NCBI RefSeq assembly: GCF_002087085.1
Contig: NZ_MWQY01000019.1
Location: 52,768 to 72,767, forward strand
Direction: 5' to 3'
DNA length: 20,000 nt
Made by a program: the position numbers and the translations under genes. The stretch's first letter is position 1, and each line of letters opens with the position of its first letter. Below, piece after piece: positions 1,811 through 20,000 of the stretch. The notes under the pieces were generated by a model. That model searched no databases. It was given only the letters and a program-made list of their open reading frames with translations, and had not been told where the DNA came from.

Positions 1811-3667
1811 ATGAAAAAGGTTAATGAGGAAATAAAAAGACAGATTCTTGGCCTGCTGGCGGTGGTACTTTTTGTAGGTACAATATGGGGAATAGTAAAC
1901 AGCTGGTACTTCGCCCTGGCCAGAGAGTACACCCGTAACCATTTTGTTGAACTCGCCCTTCCCTACCGGGAATCCTTCATCGGGGCAATAAAGGAGCGCT
2001 TTGCCCTGGTTGAAGGGCTGGCCTCCTTTGCGAGTGCGGTCCCCGAAGAGACCGTATCCACCGCGTTCAATGATTTCGCCGCAGGTATCTTTGATGAAAA
2101 AAAAGGGATACGCAACATATCCATAGCCCCGGGGGGAATCCAGAAGTATGTGTATCCCCTGCGAACGAACGAGATTGTTTCCGGTCATAATCTATTGAAG
2201 GATCCCAGACCGGAGGTTCAAAAGGATATAAAGCTCGCCATGGAAACCGGGGAGCTGATAATCAGCGGCCCTTACGAACTGCGTCAGGGCGGTCAGGGAC
2301 TTATCGCCCGAAAAGCCTTGTTCAGAGACGACAGCTTTCAGGGCCTTGTAACCATCGTACTCGATATGCCACCCATTTATCGGGAAAGCGGAATACAAGA
2401 TGCCCGGAAGATTTCTATAACCCTGCTGGATGCACAGCAGCGCCTGTTTTTCGGTCCTGAACCGGGAGAAAATCCCATAAACCTGAAAATGCAGATAACA
2501 GATGAAGTCTGGCAGATGCTGGTGATGCCTAAAAACAGCTGGCAGATCGAGTACTTCCGCGTAATGCAGCCCTTTTTCTTCATGACCATAATAATTGCGC
2601 TGTTTTCCGGCGGCGGCCTTTTTCTCCTGGCCCGGAAGATGTTCTCCCTTTCCCGAAAAGCCCGACTGGAACAACTGCGCTACAAAAACCTTTTTAACAG
2701 CATCAGTGATGCTATTTTTGTCACCGACGAACAAAGACGCATCATTGATGCCAACCAGCCTGCCCTGCAGAGCATGTTCGGGTATGACCTGGACGAGATT
2801 GCCGGAAAGGATACATCCCTGATTTATGCATCCCGAAGTGACTTTGATAAGATCGGGAATCTGCTTTCAGAAAAATCCACAGACAGAACCGGCACCCTCC
2901 TGGAGGTAGCTCTTAAACGGAAGGACGGTTCAGTTTTTCCGGCGGAAATAAGCATTCCCAGGTATCTGGATAACCGGGGAAAAACCATCGGTAAAATCGG
3001 AATAATCCGGGACATAACGGACAGAAAATTAGCCCGCGAAGCCCTGCACCGTGAAATCGAAGAAAAGAAAACACTCCTGAGGGAGATTCATCACCGGGTA
3101 AAAAATAACCTGAACATCGTGGCCAGTCTGCTGAATCTGCAAAAGAACGAGTTCCAGACCGAGGTATCGGCCCGTCAGTCCTTTGACGATATGGCAAAAC
3201 GTATCCACTCCATGGCCATGATACATGATTCCCTCTACAACAGCGGAAGCCTTTCCAGTGTTACCATGTCAACGTATATACGGAAACTTATCAGCGAACT
3301 GAATGCCTCCCTGGGAAGACCTCCGCTGATAAGGATTGATGCCGACCTCGAGGACATCCAGCTGAATATAACCAGCGCTGTTCCCTGCGGAATTCTCATC
3401 AACGAACTGATTACCAACGCCATCAAGCATGCGTTCCGGGACCGTTCAGAAGGCAGAATCCATGTGTCCCTTGGGAAAAAAACTGGAACGCATACCATTG
3501 TGCTGACAGTCAAGGATAACGGCAGCGGCCTGAATCCCGATTTCTCACTGGAATCATCTGCATCCCTTGGCATGCGACTGATACAGCTTTTGACATCCCA
3601 GCTGGACGGTACCTTGAGCTACAACAGTAACCAGGGCGCGACCTTCAGCGTGGAGTTCGAGGAGTGA
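1811..3667 (+). CDS. Membrane sensor histidine kinase (TM-CHASE-TM-PAS-HisKA_2-HATPase)
   Basis: Two TM segments flank a CHASE-like region (YVYPL..NE..GHNLL..ISGPYELRQGGQGLIAR). PAS (LFNSISDAIFV..MFGY..KRKDGSVFP..RDITDRK), H-box EIHHRVKNNL, N-box NELITNAIKHAF, DNGSG and SLGMRLI follow. Confidence 0.9.
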   Translation: MKKVNEEIKRQILGLLAVVLFVGTIWGIVNSWYFALAREYTRNHFVELALPYRESFIGAIKERFALVEGLASFASAVPEETVSTAFNDFAAGIFDEKKGIRNISIAPGGIQKYVYPLRTNEIVSGHNLLKDPRPEVQKDIKLAMETGELIISGPYELRQGGQGLIARKALFRDDSFQGLVTIVLDMPPIYRESGIQDARKISITLLDAQQRLFFGPEPGENPINLKMQITDEVWQMLVMPKNSWQIEYFRVMQPFFFMTIIIALFSGGGLFLLARKMFSLSRKARLEQLRYKNLFNSISDAIFVTDEQRRIIDANQPALQSMFGYDLDEIAGKDTSLIYASRSDFDKIGNLLSEKSTDRTGTLLEVALKRKDGSVFPAEISIPRYLDNRGKTIGKIGIIRDITDRKLAREALHREIEEKKTLLREIHHRVKNNLNIVASLLNLQKNEFQTEVSARQSFDDMAKRIHSMAMIHDSLYNSGSLSSVTMSTYIRKLISELNASLGRPPLIRIDADLEDIQLNITSAVPCGILINELITNAIKHAFRDRSEGRIHVSLGKKTGTHTIVLTVKDNGSGLNPDFSLESSASLGMRLIQLLTSQLDGTLSYNSNQGATFSVEFEE

Positions 3668-7549: not shown

Positions 7550-8536
7550 ATGAGCAGATTACCTATTATTGATCAGGACTGGATTAAAGTACGCGCCACA
7601 AACCTCAAGTATTACGATAATATCGAGCTGTATTTCAAGAATCCCTTCGGCAAGATCGTCCTGTACAAACCTGCGGGTATGAATTTCACCGATGAGAGCC
7701 TTAAAAAGAAGCCTTTCCTGGGGGATCTGTATGTTAAACCTGAAGATAAAATCCGGGCGCTTCAGGAGGCCCAGAGGGGATTCAGCAATAATTTCTCCGG
7801 CAGTATAATCTCCCAGGGAACCAGGAAAGTAAAAGAAGAACTGATCAGTATAATCGACGAAACCCTGGCTGAACCCCGGGCCGGAAGTCTGGCGGTGGTA
7901 CCGGAGGCCATGGAGGCCATAATTGACGGCTACTCCCGGCAGCCCAGCGTAATTAAAAACCTGGCAAAAATTTCCCACTCTGACTACTCAACGGCTATCC
8001 ATTCCATCAATGTCATGGCTCTTGCAGTGGGATACTGCTTTTATACCTGCCGTTCCAGGGAAGAGACCTTAACCATCGGTCTTGCAGCCCTGCTCCACGA
8101 CGTGGGAAAAACTGAAATTCCCCAGGAAATCCTGACTGCCCCCCGGAACCTGAGCAGTTCCGAGTTTCTTATCATGAAGAAACACCCGGAAATAGGGGCG
8201 GACATACTGGAAACCTACGCCTCGGACCTGCTCCAGACCCTCCCCGGAACCCTGGAACATCACGAAAAACTCGACGGCAGCGGGTACCCCCGGGGGACTA
8301 CCGACATATCCGATATTGGACAGATCCTCAGTGTAATCGACTGTTACGAGGCAATCACGAATGACGAGCGCCCATACAGGAACTCAATGAAACCGATCAG
8401 CGCGCTGAAACTCCTGAAGGAAGAGACTGACCTGGGCAGATTCAACCGCCGGATCTTTGAAGATTTTGCCTACAGCCTTACGGATTTTTCATCCGTTTCG
8501 AATCACAAGACCTACCGATCAATTCTGGGAACCTGA
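7550..8536 (+). CDS. HD-GYP domain protein (putative cyclic dinucleotide phosphodiesterase)
   Basis: HSINV, LLHDVGK, MKKHP, HHEKLDGSGYPRG and DCYEAIT..RPYR motifs. Confidence 0.9.
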   Translation: MSRLPIIDQDWIKVRATNLKYYDNIELYFKNPFGKIVLYKPAGMNFTDESLKKKPFLGDLYVKPEDKIRALQEAQRGFSNNFSGSIISQGTRKVKEELISIIDETLAEPRAGSLAVVPEAMEAIIDGYSRQPSVIKNLAKISHSDYSTAIHSINVMALAVGYCFYTCRSREETLTIGLAALLHDVGKTEIPQEILTAPRNLSSSEFLIMKKHPEIGADILETYASDLLQTLPGTLEHHEKLDGSGYPRGTTDISDIGQILSVIDCYEAITNDERPYRNSMKPISALKLLKEETDLGRFNRRIFEDFAYSLTDFSSVSNHKTYRSILGT

Positions 8537-11715: not shown

Positions 11716-12729
11716 TCAGGGATAGGTTTTACGGAAACCTTCTACCCTGGCGGAAGCGGCCTCGGAAAGCGGAGAGATTCGTCCTTCCTTCAGGTAATGA
11801 TAGCCAAGACCGGCGATCATGGCACCGTTGTCGGTACAGAGTTCCAGGGGGGGAAACAGCACCTCCAGCCCCCTGACATCCGCCAGGCTTGAACGCAGGT
11901 AGCTGTTGGCTGCAACGCCGCCTCCGACTACCACACGATCAAGAGCCGTATCCTCAACCGCCCGTAAAAGCCGTTTTACCAGAATATCGATCGCCCTCTT
12001 CTGGAAAGAGGCAGCGATATTCTCCAGGGACTTTTCGGAAACCCCGTCCCAGAACTGGTCGATCTGGTTGATAACCGCATTTTTAAGGCCGGAATAGCTG
12101 ACATCGTAGCGGTGATCGCCTTTGTGCAGGTTGGGTCCGGGAAAAGCGAAGGCCTGGGGATTACCCGTCTGCGCCAGGCGATCGATGGCAACCCCTCCGG
12201 GGTATCCCATGTCGTAGTATTTTGCCACCTTGTCAAAAGCCTCGCCGCAGGCGTCATCGATGGTAGTTCCCATTACCCGAATGTCATCCACCCCGTCGAC
12301 CCTGCAGATCATGGTGTGCCCGCCGGAGACCAGGAGCCCCAGAAAGGGATAGGATATTTCCCTCTCGAGCTGAGGGGCGTAGAGATGGGCCTTTACGTGG
12401 TTTACCGTGGTATAGGGAATCCCGAGGGCCAGGGCCAGTCCCTTGGCGAAGGAGAGCCCCACAAGAAGGGAGCCCACCAGGCCGGGTCGGCTGGTGACGG
12501 CGATGCCGTCGAGATCTTCCAGGGCGAGCTCTCCGCGGTGCAGGGTCTCGGTAAAGGTGTCCCGGATCCACTCGGTATGAGTCCGGGAGGCGATCTCCGG
12601 GACCACCCCCATAAAGGGACGGTGAATGTCTATCTGGGTTGCGACGATGCTGCTGAGGATGTGCCTTCCGTTTTCAACAACAGCGATACTGCACTCGTCA
12701 CAGGAGGTCTCTATACCAAGAACCTTCAT
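11716..12729 (-). CDS. tsaD: tRNA N6-threonylcarbamoyladenosine transferase TsaD (Kae1/Gcp family)
   Basis: LGIETSCDE, VVPEIASRTH, NHVKAH, LLVSGGHT, DDACGEAFDK, GGVAAN and CTDNGAMIA. ATGA overlap with the upstream gene. Confidence 0.96.
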   Translation of the reverse strand: MKVLGIETSCDECSIAVVENGRHILSSIVATQIDIHRPFMGVVPEIASRTHTEWIRDTFTETLHRGELALEDLDGIAVTSRPGLVGSLLVGLSFAKGLALALGIPYTTVNHVKAHLYAPQLEREISYPFLGLLVSGGHTMICRVDGVDDIRVMGTTIDDACGEAFDKVAKYYDMGYPGGVAIDRLAQTGNPQAFAFPGPNLHKGDHRYDVSYSGLKNAVINQIDQFWDGVSEKSLENIAASFQKRAIDILVKRLLRAVEDTALDRVVVGGGVAANSYLRSSLADVRGLEVLFPPLELCTDNGAMIAGLGYHYLKEGRISPLSEAASARVEGFRKTYP

Positions 12730-13649
12730 TCCTCCAGATCCAGCCTTCCCAGGTAGATCATCGATCCAATATCGTCAAAGCTGAACCCCTTCTCGGTGAA
12801 CTCCGGATAGAGATCAAGAAGCAGCTCAGCCAGGTGCTCATCCCACACATGCCCGATCATAACGGCCCTTCCGCTGGTCTCAGCCAGGGAAAAGCCCGAC
12901 CGCAGGGCCCGTTCAATATAATCCCGTTCTCGTTCGTTGTCTAAAAACATGCTGTTCCTTTCTGCATACGGCAAAGAAATCTCCGCTGCGATCCTTCCTG
13001 CGACGCTTTCTCCGGTGGTTACGGAATCGAGAAAAAACATATTTCGTTCCTTCAGATACTCCAGAACCATCCTCATGGTTTCTCCGTCCGCCGTGGCCTT
13101 TGATCCCATATGGTTATTGATACCCGGGGCTCCACCCAGGGTTGCAAGATTTGTGTCGAGCAGGGTGTAGATTTCCTCTTTGCTCATGCCGGTAAAGATT
13201 GCCCCCTCCCCTGGATCGGCATCGCCCACAGGTTCCATGGGCTGATGCATAATATAATACTTTTTTGCCTTTTGGATAAGCTCCACTGACTCTCTGGTAT
13301 AGCGGCGCCGGGGCATCACGGCAAAGGTTACAGGTATGGGAAGGGAGAGGAAGGGTTCCAGTTCTTCAAGACTGTTGCCCACATCGTCGATGACGATAAA
13401 AACTTCAGGTGCCACGGGAAGGACGGCAGATGCCTTTCCTTCCGGTTTTGAAGGAACAATCACAGGGGGTTCCACCGGTCTTTCAGGCTCTGAAACAGGC
13501 AGTACCGCCCTGTCGGTTTCCGTTCTTTCCATCCAGCCCCGGACAAGGGCGATGGATATTCCAAGCATAAGCGCTGTCGTACCGAGAAGCAGGTAACTAA
13601 AATATAATTTTGATTTTCCCCGGGTACCGGTGGAGCCGGATTTTCTCAT
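12726..13649 (-). CDS. Divergent polysaccharide deacetylase family protein (YibQ/Polysacc_deac_2), N-terminal membrane anchor
   Basis: IVIDDVG, TFAVMP, MHQPMEP, GINNHMGS, FFLDS, FLDN and IGH. ATG 13649 is chosen because the TTG at 13658 overlaps the -10 box. Confidence 0.9.
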   Translation of the reverse strand: MRKSGSTGTRGKSKLYFSYLLLGTTALMLGISIALVRGWMERTETDRAVLPVSEPERPVEPPVIVPSKPEGKASAVLPVAPEVFIVIDDVGNSLEELEPFLSLPIPVTFAVMPRRRYTRESVELIQKAKKYYIMHQPMEPVGDADPGEGAIFTGMSKEEIYTLLDTNLATLGGAPGINNHMGSKATADGETMRMVLEYLKERNMFFLDSVTTGESVAGRIAAEISLPYAERNSMFLDNERERDYIERALRSGFSLAETSGRAVMIGHVWDEHLAELLLDLYPEFTEKGFSFDDIGSMIYLGRLDLEE

Positions 13650-13657
13650 TCCCACCA

Positions 13658-13686
13658 ATGGTACGAATATTATTCCCGAGGGTCAA
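13658..13686 (-). promoter_or_regulatory. Putative sigma70 promoter for deacetylase-tsaD
   Basis: Minus strand TTGACC-N17-TACCAT, ending 8 nt before ATG 13649. Confidence 0.65.
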
Positions 13687-13692
13687 TCAATC

Positions 13693-14532
13693 CTACTGAT
13701 ATACATACTCCCGAAGTTCGTCGGCATGTTCCCGGAGCTTTCTGATGGCCCGCATCTCGATCTGGCGGACTGTTTCCGGAGAGATTCCCATACGCTCACC
13801 GATGGACTTGAGGGTATACTTCTTACCGCCGTAGAAAGAAAAGCGGTACAGCAGGATCTGTCGTTCCTTTTCCATCAGGTGTTCAAGAAAGCGCATGGTA
13901 TCTTCGTGCATGCTTTTTTTTATGAGTTCGCTGTCCGGATCGTAGGTATAGTCCTCGCACATGTCCATCAGGGTTCCGGATTCGAAATTCTCATCGCTGT
14001 CCAGGGAGGCAATGGCACTGGAAGCATTCAGCAGCGATCCGACCTCTTCGGCCGCCATTCCCAGCTCCCGGGCCACCTGGTCGACGGTCGGTTTCTGCTG
14101 CAGGCGCTGGGTAAGGGTATAATAGGTTTTCTGAATCTTCTTCAGGGCTTCTTCCTTGCGGTGGGGCAGACGAATGACCCGCCGTTTATTCGACAGAGCC
14201 CGGACTATGGACTGCTTGATCCACCAGGCAGCATAGGTGCTGAAGCGAACGTTCCTTCTGTAGTCATATTTACTTGCGGCCTTTATAAGGCCCAGATTAC
14301 CTTCCTGTACAATGTCGAGAAAGCTTACATCCGTCGAGGCGTAGGCCTTGGCGATTTTAACAACAAGTCGTAAATTGGCCTTAATCAGTTTTTCCCGGGC
14401 AAGCTCGTCACCCTGCATAATGCGGCGTGATAAATCCAGTTCTTCCTCAAAACTCAAGAGGGGTGTCGTTTTTATCTGCTGGAAGTAGGCCTTCAGGGAG
14501 TCTTCGCTCCGGGTAGCCTTTCTAGCTTTCAT
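13693..14532 (-). CDS. rpoS: Alternative sigma70-family factor lacking region 1.1 (spirochete RpoS-like)
   Basis: Region 1.2 DSLKAY..PLL; region 2 ANLRLVVKIAK, QEGNLGL, FSTYAAWWIKQ; region 3 RVIRLP; region 4 TLKSIG..ETVRQIE. ATG 14532 has SD AAGGAG. The symbol rests on the recalled Borrelia gene order and the sigma54 promoter, not on a search. Confidence 0.8.
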   Translation of the reverse strand: MKARKATRSEDSLKAYFQQIKTTPLLSFEEELDLSRRIMQGDELAREKLIKANLRLVVKIAKAYASTDVSFLDIVQEGNLGLIKAASKYDYRRNVRFSTYAAWWIKQSIVRALSNKRRVIRLPHRKEEALKKIQKTYYTLTQRLQQKPTVDQVARELGMAAEEVGSLLNASSAIASLDSDENFESGTLMDMCEDYTYDPDSELIKKSMHEDTMRFLEHLMEKERQILLYRFSFYGGKKYTLKSIGERMGISPETVRQIEMRAIRKLREHADELREYVYQ

Positions 14533-14557
14533 GGCACTCTCCTTACACAAGTATATA

Positions 14558-14574
14558 TGCAAAGTCCGTGCCAA
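14558..14574 (-). promoter_or_regulatory. sigma54 (RpoN) -24/-12 promoter of the sigma factor gene
   Basis: Minus strand TTGGCACGGACTTTGCA matches YTGGCACG-N4-TTGCW. Predicted TSS is near 14547, just upstream of the SD. Confidence 0.88.
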
Positions 14575-14685
14575 TTGAGACGATCGGTCTATGGGGATAA
14601 TAAATCTTTACAGTGTAGATATTTGAATACCGACTGGCTTATTTCCGGATCCCCTGGGGTTATTTGTTATACAAAAGTATACACA

Positions 14686-14997
14686 TCAGATCGGAAGTGT
14701 ATGTTTCTGTGAAAGCTGCCTGTAGAGCATGTCGGCGAGTCCCAGATTTGCGGAGTCGGACATCTTCCGGGCATATTTTTCATAGAGCATGTCCTCAAAG
14801 ATATCCTCCGCCATTCCCCCCTGCATAAGACCGCTTTTATTTATCGTTTTGCGCATGCTGTTCAGCATCTGCTCCAGCAGGATGGTTTCAAACTCCTTGC
14901 AGGCTTCCTTGAGAGCCTGCTGATCGCCGGCTTTGGGGGCCTTCGGGGTGTTCAGCGGCCTGTAACTCTCCATCATCTGCAGGGTATTCAATTCCAT
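14686..14997 (-). CDS. flgJ: Single-domain FlgJ (rod-binding domain only, no muramidase)
   Basis: LKEACKEFETILLEQMLNSMRKT..AEDIFEDML..LGLADMLYRQL; follows flgI; SD GGAGGT. Confidence 0.9.
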   Translation of the reverse strand: MELNTLQMMESYRPLNTPKAPKAGDQQALKEACKEFETILLEQMLNSMRKTINKSGLMQGGMAEDIFEDMLYEKYARKMSDSANLGLADMLYRQLSQKHTLPI

Positions 14998-14998
14998 C

Positions 14999-16036
14999 TT
15001 ACATTACCTCCAGGGTTCCGTAGAGAGCTCCGGCATGATCAACGGCCTGCAGGATTTCGATAAGACCCTTGGTATCGACCCCGATCTCCCGCAGAAGGTC
15101 AACAAAGTCCTCAACAGTCGGCCGCTGCTCAATCAGGAAGCTCTCACTCTCCTTATCGGAATAAAGATCGTCATCCATTATGCTGATTTTCAGCCCCTGA
15201 TACGAGACTGCCACCTTTCCTATGCGGACGTCTTTTCCCATCACCACAACACCGGTGCGGGGATTGACCACCACCCGGTCGGTAAAGCCGGGGGGTACGC
15301 TGAGGTTCTCGAGCTGGGCAATCATTTCCACCGTTCGTTCTGCGTACTCTTCGGGAATCCGCACACTGATCCGGGCTGCATCGGCAAAGGCCACCTCAAA
15401 CTCACTGTTCTCCCGGATGGCCCTGGAAACCGCCGCGGCAGTACTGAAATCAGGTTCCTTGAGAAGAATGCTGACCGTACCGTTTTCGCTGACCCGGGAG
15501 TTTACCGCCCGTTCCATTATTCCGCCGCCGGGCAGAGAAGCTACAGTATCGTTGGAGGAACCGCTTATACCCGGGATACTGCCCTGGGCCACAGCGTATA
15601 CGGCACCGTCCGCTCCTTTCAGGGCTGTCTGCAGAAGCACCCCGCCGATCAGGGATTTTGCATCGCCGATACTGGACACCCGTACGCTTATACGCTCTCC
15701 CGGCTGCACATAGGCGGGAAGATCCGCGGTCACCAGCACCACGGCGCTGTTCTTGCTGCGGATATCCCGTTCGCTCACCTGCTCAGCAAAGTTGGATACC
15801 ATGTTTGCCAGAAAGCGCCTCATAAGGGGAGAAGACTGGGAGTCCCCCTTACCCGCAAGGCCGGTCACAATGCCGAGTCCGGCGAGCTGGTTCTCCCTGA
15901 ACCCCTCTACCACCGATATCTCCCGCAGACGGATCTCATCCTGGGCAAAAAGCGGGGGATTTCCGACAACCGGGCTGAGAAAAAAGATGGATACCGCGAG
16001 CAGTATCAGTTTATATTTCTGTGGTAGTGTCTTCAT
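14999..16036 (-). CDS. flgI: Flagellar P-ring protein FlgI
   Basis: Signal peptide, RENQLAGLGIVTGLAGKGD, KNSAVVLVTADLP, VSSIGDAKSL.GG.LL, VYAVAQG, VVVNPRTGVVV and AGAL. Confidence 0.95.
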   Translation of the reverse strand: MKTLPQKYKLILLAVSIFFLSPVVGNPPLFAQDEIRLREISVVEGFRENQLAGLGIVTGLAGKGDSQSSPLMRRFLANMVSNFAEQVSERDIRSKNSAVVLVTADLPAYVQPGERISVRVSSIGDAKSLIGGVLLQTALKGADGAVYAVAQGSIPGISGSSNDTVASLPGGGIMERAVNSRVSENGTVSILLKEPDFSTAAAVSRAIRENSEFEVAFADAARISVRIPEEYAERTVEMIAQLENLSVPPGFTDRVVVNPRTGVVVMGKDVRIGKVAVSYQGLKISIMDDDLYSDKESESFLIEQRPTVEDFVDLLREIGVDTKGLIEILQAVDHAGALYGTLEVM

Positions 16037-16755
16037 CAGAACCTGACCTCCCCTTCACCGGGACCTGTAAGCAGGGCGTCAAACCTGCGGCGGGTATGGG
16101 TCAGGGTAACCGGCACACGGTCGCCGACTTCGGCACCGCGATTGGTCCTGCCCTCCGCCTCAATAATTAAGCCCTTTCGGGATATGTAGACGGTAATACG
16201 GCTTCCCGCCGGAACCCGTTCTCGATCCTTTTCCGGGGTTTTCAGGAATACCACCGGTACCGGGTTATGATCCGGATCTCCGGTCTCGAGAAACCAGCCT
16301 GACCCCCGCCTGCCTGGACGAAGGTCCTGTGCCCCGGACAGCGGGATGATATCTGCTTCCGATATGGAGAAACCGTCCCCGCCGTTTCCTGATTCCCGAC
16401 TGATCAGGGATTCAATTTTTCGTAACAGAGGGCCCAGGGTATGGTTATTTACGGATGAAAAGCCTTCAGGAATCAACCAGATTCCACTGCCGATAAGCGC
16501 CCCGGGAAGACCTCCCGGAACAATACCGGAAATACCCTTCTGGCTCAGATAGACAAAGCGCCCTTCCGTCTCGACAGGAAGGGCTTCATCGTACAGTTCA
16601 TGGGCTGCCGGCACAAGGAAAAGATCCTTTATCCGTACATCTCCTCCGACCCTGACCTGTTCAGCCAGATAGAAGGTTTCCCCGTTCAGTCGACCGATTC
16701 CCGCAGTCAGAACCAGCACAATAAGCAGCACGGAAAACCCAGGAAAAACCTTCAT
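16036..16755 (-). CDS. flgA: Divergent FlgA-like P-ring assembly chaperone
   Basis: Signal peptide. C-terminal VPAGSRITV..GLIIEAEGR..AEVGDRVPV..GPGEGEV resembles the FlgA C-terminal domain. Lies between flgG and flgI with a TGATG overlap. Confidence 0.7.
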   Translation of the reverse strand: MKVFPGFSVLLIVLVLTAGIGRLNGETFYLAEQVRVGGDVRIKDLFLVPAAHELYDEALPVETEGRFVYLSQKGISGIVPGGLPGALIGSGIWLIPEGFSSVNNHTLGPLLRKIESLISRESGNGGDGFSISEADIIPLSGAQDLRPGRRGSGWFLETGDPDHNPVPVVFLKTPEKDRERVPAGSRITVYISRKGLIIEAEGRTNRGAEVGDRVPVTLTHTRRRFDALLTGPGEGEVRF

Positions 16756-16791
16756 ATCACAGCATACCCATTCTATCCTGGTATATCAGGA

Positions 16792-17586
16792 TCAGCGCTT
16801 GAGGTTGTTGGCAATGCCGAGCATCGAATCGGAAGTCTGGATCGCCTTGGAGTTGAGTTCGTAGGCTCTCTGGGCCACGATCATATTGACCATCTCCTTG
16901 ACCACCGAAACATTGGACATTTCCAGGAATTTATGGATCGTCTTTCCCATTCCGTCAAATCCGGGACGACTGCCGATGGCGTCCCCCGAGGCATTGGAGA
17001 CCTTGTAGAGGTTTTCTCCCACCGCCTGGAGACCCGCTGGATTCACGAAGCGGTAGAGTTCAAGCTGTCCGACCTCGATGGGGTCGTCGGACCCCGCCAC
17101 CTTGGTGGTTACCCGTCCGTCCTGGGAAATGCTGACGCTGTCCCGCACAAAACCCTCGGGCAGGGTCAGGTCCGGCATCAGACGATACCCGTTGGAGTTA
17201 ACGAACTGCCCCTGTGAATCGATCTTGAAGGAACCGTCCCGGGTATAGCCGTAGGTACCGTCGATCAGGAGGACCCGGAAAAATCCCTCCCCCTGGATTG
17301 CAAGGTCGGATACATTGTCCGTAGCCTGCAGAGCCCCCTGGGTATGGAGCTTCTGGGTTGCCGCCACCCGGGTACCGTGACCGACCTGGACGCCTACCGG
17401 CACGGTGGTCAGTTCCGTAGCCGGAGTCCCGGCAATGCGGGAGGTCTGGTACAGAAGGTCCTCGAAATCGATCCGGTTCTTCTTGAACCCAGTGGTGTTG
17501 ACATTGGAAAGGTTGTTGGCAATGGTATCGATATTAAACTGCTGCCCCGTCATTCCCGACGCGGCTGTCCATAATGAACGCATCAT
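16792..17586 (-). CDS. flgG: Flagellar basal-body distal rod protein FlgG
   Basis: MMRSLWTAASGM, IANNLSNVNTTGFKK, FEDLLYQ, YTRDGSF, FVNPAGL and LEMSNVSVVKEMV; SD GGAGGT. Confidence 0.97.
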   Translation of the reverse strand: MMRSLWTAASGMTGQQFNIDTIANNLSNVNTTGFKKNRIDFEDLLYQTSRIAGTPATELTTVPVGVQVGHGTRVAATQKLHTQGALQATDNVSDLAIQGEGFFRVLLIDGTYGYTRDGSFKIDSQGQFVNSNGYRLMPDLTLPEGFVRDSVSISQDGRVTTKVAGSDDPIEVGQLELYRFVNPAGLQAVGENLYKVSNASGDAIGSRPGFDGMGKTIHKFLEMSNVSVVKEMVNMIVAQRAYELNSKAIQTSDSMLGIANNLKR

Positions 17587-17599
17587 GCTGATTTACCTC

Positions 17600-18448
17600 C
17601 TATACCCGCACAGCCTGGTTTATAAGCCGGTCGGACATCTGGTCATGGGCCTGTATGGTCTTCTGGTTTGCCTCATAGGCCCTGTTTACTTCTATCATGC
17701 GCACCATCTCGCGCACCGGATTCACGTTGGACCCCTCGAGGAAGCCCTGACGCACCTGGAGTCCGTCATCCACACCGGCGGCGACGGGGTCTCCGGAGAA
17801 GCGATCGTTAACCCAGAGACTGTCTCCCTGCTTTTTCAGGTACCTGTCCCGGGGAAAATCCACCAGCTTGAGACGGTCCACAAGCTCGATGTTCTCCCAC
17901 TCGTTCTCTTCCAGGGAGACAAGACGTTCGGGGTCGTCGGCAAAGGTACTGTTCTGCCAGATCCGGCCCTCCTGGTCGACGACAAAGTTGTTCTTTTTAA
18001 GACGGATGATCCCGTTCTCTCCCATCACGGGGAGTCCCTGCTTGTTGACCAGGATTCCTTCCGGGCTTACGTGGAAGGAACCGTTGCGGGTAAAGCGCTC
18101 GCCCTGGGGGGTATCGACGGTAAAGAAACCTTTTCCTTCCAGGGCAAGATCGAAGGGATTCTCCGTCTGCTTCAGGGCCCCCTGGGAAAAAACGGTGTAG
18201 CTCTCGTTGTACTCCACGCCGGAGCCGAGAGTGCCGATAACCGGCGCCTGGTCCACCGATCCCGGGGGAATGGTAAAGACGCCGTCGTCATTCATTCGTC
18301 GCAAAAGGAGTTCCGGAAAGGCCTTGTGTACCGGGGTGTCCTTTTTGTAACCCGTCAAATCCACGTTGGCCAGGTTGTTCGAGATAGCATCAAGGTTGTG
18401 CATCTGGGCAATCATGCCGCTGGCGCCGGTATAAATCCCGCGTATCAT
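17600..18448 (-). CDS. flgF: Flagellar basal-body rod protein FlgF (FlhO)
   Basis: MIRGIYTGASGM, ISNNLANV..TGYKKD, FTRNGSF and LEGSNVNPVREMV; directly upstream of flgG; SD GGAGGT. Confidence 0.9.
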   Translation of the reverse strand: MIRGIYTGASGMIAQMHNLDAISNNLANVDLTGYKKDTPVHKAFPELLLRRMNDDGVFTIPPGSVDQAPVIGTLGSGVEYNESYTVFSQGALKQTENPFDLALEGKGFFTVDTPQGERFTRNGSFHVSPEGILVNKQGLPVMGENGIIRLKKNNFVVDQEGRIWQNSTFADDPERLVSLEENEWENIELVDRLKLVDFPRDRYLKKQGDSLWVNDRFSGDPVAAGVDDGLQVRQGFLEGSNVNPVREMVRMIEVNRAYEANQKTIQAHDQMSDRLINQAVRV

Positions 18449-19422: not shown

Positions 19423-20000
19423 GGGTCTCCTGAAAAACTCAGTTTCCCCGTTTATACGGCAATTATGACCGGTTTTCTATCAAATATTACCGAAGGAAAA
19501 GCGGAAAGAAAAAGCGCATAAAGATCCTTGAGGATCTTCTCCATATTCATCACCAGCATGTTCATCATGATGGTTGTTTCACTGGTTATCCGGAGTTTCT
19601 CATACACGCAGTCCATTCCATATCTGCGTTTGCCAACACCAAATGCACCTTCGATTGCCTGGCGGATACTTTCATCCCGGCGTTCCTGTTTTCTTTTCGC
19701 CCTCAATATCTTTTTATCAATTCCTGCAGTGTTTACAGGACGACCCAGGGGAGGACCAGATAATCTGATACTACGTTCTTCACACCAGGCCCGGTTCTCC
19801 CGCGTCCGATAGATCTTATCCACATGTACCGATTCTGGGTAATGACCACATCGATCTTTATAGCGTTCCACCTGCATCTGTAAGTCGCCGCTTTCATTGT
19901 ACGGTTCCCATTCCAGCCGGTCGATATACATCAGACCATGTTCAGTAATTGCAGCAGAGATCTTGGCTCCAAACTCATAGGCTCCTCTGGCCTTACCGCG
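19423..20000 (-). mobile_element. IS5-family insertion sequence, downstream end (continues beyond the window)
   Basis: Candidate terminal IR GGGTCTCCTGAAAAACTC (19423-19440) is preceded by TA and lies 11 nt past the transposase stop. The boundary is uncertain by 1-2 nt. Confidence 0.85.
19452..20000 (-). CDS. IS5-family DDE transposase, C-terminal part
   Basis: Frame is open to the window edge: RGKARGAYEFGAKIS, then YPESVHVDKIYRTRENR, GPPLGRP and RQAIEGAFGVGKRRY. Confidence 0.92.
   Translation of the reverse strand, partial: RGKARGAYEFGAKISAAITEHGLMYIDRLEWEPYNESGDLQMQVERYKDRCGHYPESVHVDKIYRTRENRAWCEERSIRLSGPPLGRPVNTAGIDKKILRAKRKQERRDESIRQAIEGAFGVGKRRYGMDCVYEKLRITSETTIMMNMLVMNMEKILKDLYALFLSAFPSVIFDRKPVIIAV

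Follow-up and report, generated by a model that had tools for sequence, protein, structure and literature searches.

In Borrelia, the Rrp2-RpoN-RpoS pathway is the central switch for adaptation from the tick to the mammal. Abstracts of Borrelia papers call this pathway a novel or distinctive network, and our search of the openly accessible literature found no description of a sigma-54 promoter at rpoS, or of such a cascade, outside Borrelia. Here we analyze a 20,000-nucleotide (nt) stretch of contig NZ_MWQY01000019.1 (positions 52,768 to 72,767; hereafter the window) from a free-living, Marispirochaeta-like marine spirochaete. A sigma factor gene on its minus strand (13693..14532) is, as judged by sequence comparison, the orthologue of Borrelia rpoS, and very probably a real sigma-54-dependent promoter (14558..14573) drives it. 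On this evidence the switch seems to be an old circuit of spirochaetes that Borrelia did not itself invent.

The likeness to the Hk2-Rrp2-RpoN-RpoS cascade of Borrelia burgdorferi begins with the sigma gene itself, an orthologue that occupies the same place in an eight-gene block. The window gene encodes a protein of 279 amino acids (aa) in which PF00140, PF04542, PF04539 and PF04545 all score above their cut-offs, giving regions 1.2, 2, 3 and 4 only, so that the first-pass annotation of this DNA, made from the letters alone, was right to describe a 279-aa sigma factor lacking region 1.1. Among named proteins the closest is one of a Marispirochaeta species (96% identity), and among the matches listed the named relatives are all called RpoD/SigA, primary sigma factor or sigma-70 (family). 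A search of representative proteins gave 105,854 relatives, none of them named. For comparison we used three genomes labelled Borrelia-like on the basis of their 28% G+C and their gene order. In these genomes the best match of the window protein is the product of a 267-aa sigma gene at about 820 kb (41% identity; 180 bits vs 159 for their RpoD), and in the reverse search the Borrelia-like RpoS best matches the window gene (185 bits vs 138 for the next), so the two are reciprocal best hits. The Borrelia-like gene order is flgF, flgG, a 212-aa open reading frame (ORF), flgI, a rod-binding flgJ, the sigma gene, a Polysacc_deac_2 gene and tsaD, and all eight genes are collinear with those of the window. 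The first-pass annotation had placed Borrelia rpoS between flgI/flgJ and the deacetylase and gcp genes, and this is what the Borrelia-like genome contains.

Quick maximum-likelihood trees give the same placement. In a first tree of 77 sigma proteins the spirochaete sequences form four clades, namely RpoD, a C4-type, a C24-type and a 36-row clade, and the last of these holds the query, its 30 orthologues and Borrelia RpoS with a Shimodaira-Hasegawa-like approximate likelihood ratio test (SH-aLRT) value of 97. A second tree was built without 31 rows (the long branches L045, L049, L074, L080 and L083, and 26 redundant rows), and in it Borrelia RpoS and the query still share a clade, of 19 rows, at SH-aLRT 100. 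Set against this, an approximately unbiased (AU) test of the grouping of Borrelia RpoS with the C24-type proteins did not reject that rival placement (delta log likelihood 22.9, p 0.09), and the Borrelia branch in the second tree is long (2.85). The expected grouping with Borrelia RpoS was thus recovered, without the competing placement being rejected, and because of the AU result the orthology rests mainly on synteny and on shared motifs. Two such motifs give support independent of the tree. P-x-R-K-[ED] in region 3 is found in 31/31 clade rows and 3/3 Borrelia rows, and ETVRQIE in region 4 in 30/31 clade rows and again 3/3 Borrelia rows; each occurs in 0/41 of the other sigma rows. Within the first motif, R125/K126 of the window protein align with R121/K122 of Borrelia RpoS, residues that have been proposed to act in promoter selectivity (PMC6719511).

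The resemblance to proteobacterial RpoS (sigma-38) is of a different kind. Like the window protein, it is a small member of the sigma-70 family that comprises regions 1.2 to 4 but lacks region 1.1, and the proteobacterial RpoS models rank at or near the top of the NCBIfam scores of the window protein, but these scores (TIGR02394, 239.2 vs a cut-off of 378.7; NF004207, 234.2 vs 394) lie below the cut-offs. At the position of K173 in Escherichia coli RpoS the window protein has a glutamate, E128, as in RpoD; it has no counterpart of the C-terminal extension of proteobacterial RpoS, ending two alignment columns before E. coli RpoS; and E. coli RpoS falls outside the query clade in both trees. From the tree position, E128 and the scores below cut-off, we conclude that the window gene is an orthologue of Borrelia RpoS and not of sigma-38. 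The same paper raises these doubts about kinship with proteobacterial RpoS for Borrelia RpoS as well (PMC6719511).

The promoter, TGGCACGGACTTTGCA (14558..14573, minus strand), is the sole exact consensus match in the 20-kb window, a search for TGGCACN5TTGCW giving one hit. The minus strand reads TTGGCACGGACTTTGCA at 14574..14558, with the core TGGCAC-N5-TTGCA at 14573..14558, the -24 GG at 14572/14571 and the -12 GC at 14560/14559. This core ends 25 nt before the ATG of the sigma gene at 14532, and a Shine-Dalgarno sequence, AAGGAG (14539..14544, minus strand), can be read 6 nt before that ATG. Standard sigma-54 geometry, 12 nt past the C (14559) of the -12 GC, predicts a minus-strand transcription start at 14547, which would leave a leader of 15 nt. 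The consensus promoter that had been placed directly upstream of the Shine-Dalgarno sequence and ATG is therefore there in each of its parts. The interval first given for the gene, 13693..14574, is correct at 13693, but the gene itself starts at the ATG at 14532; 14574 is the TTG that opens the longest ORF (13693-14574) from inside the promoter, and this overlap explains the earlier coordinates. With at most one mismatch allowed, the window contains two sigma-54 sites where 0.40 are expected, a number reached in 12 of 200 shuffles. The second of these, on the plus strand at 14532-14547, was set aside as a chance match, as it overlaps the Shine-Dalgarno sequence and ATG and points away from ORF starts.

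The arrangement is not peculiar to this genome. Relatives of the sigma protein are present in 401/401 Spirochaetota genomes searched, and we examined the 29 best foreign loci and one more, giving 30 orthologous loci, for the motif TGG[CT][AG]N6[TCA]TGC within -250..+120 of the ORF start. The motif precedes the orthologue in 30/30 of these other genomes, which represent nine family codes, more than one class and 25-66% G+C, and it precedes rpoS in 3/3 Borrelia-like loci. The same search found it at 0/16 rpoD loci, 0/7 loci of the C4-type paralogue and 0/1 orphan (L056), that is, at none of 24 controls. This breadth, nine family codes and more than one class, supports the earlier suggestion that the cascade is ancestral. 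The elements do differ in detail: the Borrelia-like loci read TTGGCA[TC]GATTTTTGC where the window reads TTGGCACGGACTTTGC, and the Borrelia-like motif lies 73-78 nt before the called start codon, compared with the predicted 15-nt leader in the window. In the genome G015, which resembles Treponema denticola, the rpoS-type gene (L045; L089:9182-9400) encodes 276 aa with PVRKE and sits on a very long branch, and its -24 element is TAGCAC instead of TGGCAC, so that this promoter may be weakened or altered. Such results make it very improbable that the motif is a chance occurrence, or that the gene is an unrelated RpoD-like paralogue whose likeness to the Borrelia cascade is superficial. That view can point to the window protein falling below the cut-off of every named NCBIfam sigma family (the best being proteobacterial RpoS, 239 vs 378.7) and to the AU test, which is not decisive; it has to contend with a motif found at 30/30 orthologues and 0/24 control genes, with eight genes in the Borrelia-like order, with reciprocal best hits, and with two clade-specific motifs common to Borrelia RpoS.

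The motif is also found before a second type of sigma gene. It occurs at 9/12 loci of the C24-type sister paralogue and before the window genome's own C24-type copy, a 290-aa sigma gene (contig C24, about 26342-25533, minus strand; locus L102:3492-4364) with the motif TTGGCATGTAGATTGCAT about 20 nt before its ATG. As the motif precedes both the window sigma gene and this copy, the genome would have at least two sigma-54-driven sigma genes. The C24-type clade includes the 311-aa sigma gene of a Treponema pallidum-like genome and the 286-aa sigma gene of the T. denticola-like genome, both with sigma-54 motifs. Read by eye, the upstream repeat of C24-type genes is GTCAT-N4-GACAC, unlike the TGTATA-N6-TATACA of the rpoS type. 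The third paralogue, the C4-type sigma gene (C4:125630-126535), is followed about 700 nt downstream on the same strand by a Fur-family gene (C4:127239-127625; L108).

The rpoS-type repeat belongs to a conserved element farther upstream. ATACA/TGTAT pentamers in the upstream regions of the orthologues are concentrated at one distance, 47 of 61 falling between -140 and -81 from the -24 element, and two or more lie between -150 and -70 in 15 of 35 loci (mean 1.6 and maximum 6 loci in 500 shuffles). A strict regular expression recognized only 7 of 35 loci, since spacing and half-sites vary, and was replaced by these pentamer counts and by a weight matrix of 18 nt (consensus TGTATAAAAAATTATACA), for which the upstream regions of 31 orthologous loci served as the training set, with the query and Borrelia left out. 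The best hit of the matrix in the window (23.4; next 14.9), and also in the whole genome, is an 18-bp near-palindromic enhancer-like site, GTTATACAAAAGTATACA (plus strand, 14666..14683), which begins 3 nt past the flgJ stop codon and is centred about 103 nt upstream of the -24 GG. Most orthologues have the site at -100 to -127. At the window locus there is one strong site (23.4) and a second, weak one (12.0 at -58), and the last codons of flgJ contain a weaker CATACA half-site; a second strong site 24 nt away was found in only 4 of the 36 loci scored. Two strong sites, scoring 23.1 and 20.5 and separated by 24 nt, are present at the T. denticola-like locus L045. The second genomic hit of the matrix, C65:152463, was rejected as chance: the accompanying TGGTAT..TTGC is 190 nt off, inside an ORF of the opposite strand, with no good ORF behind it.

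A classical enhancer-dependent sigma-54 promoter is glnAp2, and the window locus shares with such NtrC-family promoters both the GG-N10-GC pattern and a palindromic site roughly 100-130 nt upstream; the activators encoded in this genome likewise have the receiver, AAA+ and Fis-type helix-turn-helix domains of the classical NtrC type. It differs in that the output of the classical systems is a metabolic operon and here would be another sigma factor, and in having only one strong site. The difference from Borrelia is larger, for the three Borrelia-like loci are without the palindrome that is strong in the window and score only 5.4-10.8 with the matrix, against a 99th percentile of 13.6 for random 220-nt pieces of the window genome. 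Activation of Borrelia rpoS by Rrp2 is reportedly enhancer-independent, which the missing palindrome fits.

Sigma-54 closed complexes in general need ATP-driven opening by an activator. Most likely, RNA polymerase with sigma-54 (RpoN) would transcribe the window sigma gene from 14573..14558, starting near 14547; here the closed complex would be opened, at the cost of ATP, by an activator of the NtrC type, an oligomer of which would most likely bind the 18-bp palindrome at 14666-14683 and reach the promoter via DNA looping; and core polymerase, once joined by the new sigma factor, would turn to a regulon of that factor's own. It is unlikely, by comparison, that the gene is expressed mainly by read-through from flgF-flgJ or from a sigma-70 promoter, with the sigma-54 element serving as a conditional boost only. 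All genes from flgF to tsaD do lie on one strand with short gaps, no minus-strand terminator-like site was found between flgJ and the sigma gene, and in Borrelia rpoS is also transcribed in a longer form, from a promoter farther upstream. Yet a 153-nt spacer that keeps enhancer and promoter across genomes of 25-66% G+C would be costly for a minor role, a search of the spacer between flgJ and the sigma gene gave no sigma-70-like promoter, and several orthologous loci whose upstream neighbours are non-flagellar (in G347 an activator gene, in the T. denticola-like genome other, unannotated genes) still keep the promoter or the enhancer.

The genome also encodes other parts of the Borrelia pathway. 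There is one rpoN, on contig C65, encoding 474 aa with the Sigma54_AID, CBD and DBD domains, and it is intact. An Rrp2 orthologue on contig C17 (7496-6135) matches the Borrelia-like Rrp2 at 57% identity with 505 bits, the next protein reaching 343, and directly upstream lies an Hk2 orthologue (8658-7486; 38% identity, 234 bits, next 123), a kinase with a PAS domain beside HisKA and HATPase. The order on C17, murG-cvpA-holB-hk2-rrp2, is that of the Borrelia-like genome, where pdxK, murG, cvpA, holB, hk2 and rrp2 follow beyond tsaD and place rrp2 7 kb from rpoS. An intact rpoN, an hk2-rrp2 pair in this order and the region 3 R/K pair thus extend the likeness to the cascade beyond the sigma gene, and two of the three partners that the first-pass annotation had named, rpoN and hk2-rrp2, are present in the genome. 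When the C17 activator was compared with 15 other genomes, 13 had a best match of 51-72% identity (57% in the Borrelia-like, 64% in the T. pallidum-like and 66% in the T. denticola-like genome), further matches in those 13 being of 55% identity or less and covering part of the protein only. The Leptospira-like genome and one genome of family f41 had a match of only 45-47%, and both are without an rpoS-type gene; an Rrp2 orthologue is present in 10/10 tested genomes that carry one.

The genome has 15 strong sigma-54 activator genes, where the Borrelia-like genome has one real one. Because 14 activators other than the C17 protein are encoded, we see the case for and against the Hk2-Rrp2 pair as the input of the window promoter as evenly balanced. 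If the pair is the input, its signal would be oxygen or redox, by likeness to Hpk2, the haem-PAS kinase of T. denticola. According to a 2025 paper, T. denticola Hpk2 is an oxygen-sensing PAS kinase, and Rrp2 is a predicted sigma-54 activator that "remains unstudied" (PMC12070737). The likeness to this Hpk2-Rrp2 system (TDE1970/TDE1969) consists in a PAS kinase and in an orthologue of the C17 activator, 66% identical to it, that the T. denticola-like genome encodes.

A real though lesser possibility accepts the sigma-54 promoter and assigns it differently: one of the 14 other NtrC-type activators, not Hk2-Rrp2, would bind the palindrome, and Rrp2 would ancestrally have driven the C24-type sigma gene, taking over rpoS only in Borrelia with its single activator. 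In G080 the Rrp2 orthologue (63% identity; C1:562863-565272, L081) ends 254 nt before a C24-type gene with its own sigma-54 motif, an arrangement that raises the question of which sigma-54-driven sigma gene Rrp2 served ancestrally, and in G210 and G380 the rrp2 and C24-type genes are 7 and 10 kb apart. The T. pallidum-like genome has an Rrp2 orthologue (64%) and a sigma-54 motif before its C24-type gene, and no rpoS-type gene was found in it. The upstream repeats of the two paralogues differ (TGTATA-N6-TATACA and, by eye, GTCAT-N4-GACAC), and the lack of the palindrome at Borrelia-like loci fits a changed mode of activation there. On the other side, Borrelia rpoS depends on Rrp2, according to abstracts; every tested genome with an rpoS-type gene also has an Rrp2 orthologue (10/10); and gene proximity is weak evidence, the Borrelia-like rrp2 itself being 7 kb from rpoS.

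Besides the AU result, the long Borrelia branch and the G080 arrangement, several observations count against our main reading, a sigma-54-driven orthologue of Borrelia rpoS. No sigma-54 activator gene lies within the window, and the enhancer matrix finds no site near hk2-rrp2. The activator encoded next to the sigma gene in G347 (L013) is not an Rrp2 orthologue, having 38.5% identity to the Borrelia-like Rrp2; it was also tried and discarded as a pointer to the cognate activator, its best match in the window genome having only 40% identity. Borrelia has BosR, the third partner named at the outset, but no clear BosR orthologue was found here among three Fur-family genes, the best match having 30% identity over 127 residues (E 5.5e-8). 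Finally, the available RNA data are assembled contigs that carry neither start nor strand, and DNA carry-over is possible.

Twenty public runs hold the stretch or part of it, six of them on record as RNA. In four metatranscriptome runs, which belong to three studies of marine or other sediments, the sigma gene is covered by contigs that continue into the deacetylase gene, which shows presence only. Among the contigs listed, the sigma-side ends are at 14530, 14523, 14506 and 14463 and the flgJ-side ends at 14621 and 14633, the interval 14531-14620 is spanned by none of them, and the depth in the bin 14524-14637 is 0, 1.03, 0.87 and 0. A transcription start within this gap would agree with the pattern. 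We do not count the gap as evidence for a start site, as the pieces are contigs only and their ends do not coincide. A depth peak at 14182-14295, which reaches 63 in one run and is accompanied by many loose ends at 14207 and 14244, lies at conserved sigma region 2, and the extra pieces are for that reason probably from the sigma genes of other organisms.

The neighbours of the 279-aa RpoS-type sigma gene (13693..14532, minus strand; identified by Pfam, trees and motifs) were assigned with NCBIfam and Pfam and are all on the minus strand. Upstream are flgF (18448-17600), flgG (17586-16792), a flgA-like gene (16755-16036) and flgI, for the P-ring (16036-14999); this block of flagellar rod and P-ring genes (14999..18448) is collinear with the Borrelia-like locus L086. 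It is followed by flgJ (14686..14997), which encodes 103 aa with the rod-binding domain only (PF10135; TIGR02541 partial), and by the flgJ-sigma spacer of 153 nt. Downstream, a divergent polysaccharide deacetylase gene (12726..13658; PF04748, Polysacc_deac_2, E 2.7e-65; start codon uncertain) adjoins the sigma gene in 8 of 31 short orthologous loci (tblastn), and in the Borrelia-like genome, too, rpoS is followed by a gene of this family. The conserved block ends with tsaD (11716..12729; TIGR03723, 402 bits, above cut-off), which has the same place in the Borrelia-like genome. Both the order flgF-flgG-flgA-flgI-flgJ-sigma-deacetylase-tsaD and a G+C content far above that of Borrelia had been read correctly from the letters, the window having 52% G+C and the Borrelia-like loci 28%. 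Elsewhere in the window are a PAS-containing histidine kinase (1811-3667, plus strand), whose best match is PhyK at 115 bits, below the cut-off of 750; an HD-domain protein (7550-8536, plus strand; Pfam HD_5) with a weak match to a cyclic di-GMP phosphodiesterase model; and, near the contig end, a 159-aa C-terminal fragment of an IS5-family transposase (19452-19931, minus strand; profile positions 299-418 of 419).

Across the whole genome (4.2 Mb, 53% G+C) the exact sigma-54 core occurs 10 times; when its letters were shuffled, the 40 versions so made occurred 2.4 times on average (range 0-9), and the pattern read in reverse gave 0 matches. At nine of the 10 matches an ORF that is 88 aa or longer opens, behind a Shine-Dalgarno sequence, within 30-72 nt downstream, and the tenth has a 434-aa ORF downstream. 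The nine matches other than the window promoter are found in front of amtB, dctP, genes for a sugar-binding protein and an oxidoreductase, groES, hsp20 and three genes whose products were assigned to no family, so that the list includes classic sigma-54 targets. The perfect promoters before the chaperone genes stand 72 nt before groES (C56:181250, L116) and 44 nt before an Hsp20-family gene (C75:35935, L117), and sigma-54 seems to control heat-shock chaperone genes here. A further perfect promoter, at C45:86131, precedes a 292-aa ORF (86073-85195, L115) with no Pfam match.

If the same gene, promoter and two-component system occur in free-living marine spirochaetes, then the switch is old and was re-used by Borrelia. 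The host of the window is such an organism, and its RpoS regulon cannot be the plasmid lipoproteins of Borrelia. Tentatively, and as a scenario that we hold to be somewhat less likely than not, we suggest that a sigma-54-to-RpoS module consisting of an 18-bp enhancer, a -24/-12 promoter and a PxRKE sigma factor may be ancestral to much of the Spirochaetota, beside a second and perhaps a third sigma-54-driven sigma; that its original input may have been an oxygen- or redox-sensing Hk2-Rrp2 of anaerobic free-living spirochaetes; that Borrelia may have lost the enhancer and the other activators and rewired the module around BosR; and that the treponemes may have kept the sister cascade, the T. 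denticola-like genome also retaining a weakened, TAGCAC-type rpoS promoter with two enhancer sites. If this is true, the oddities of Borrelia, enhancer-free activation and dependence on BosR, would be secondary changes. For annotation, the spirochaete "RpoS-type" clade, marked by PxRKE and ETVRQIE, is separable from two other short sigma paralogues. The sigma-54-driven sigma genes would offer a first candidate target class for T. denticola Rrp2, and harmless, culturable organisms would become available for studying how Rrp2-type activators find their promoters, what the ancestral regulon is and which signal Hk2 senses.

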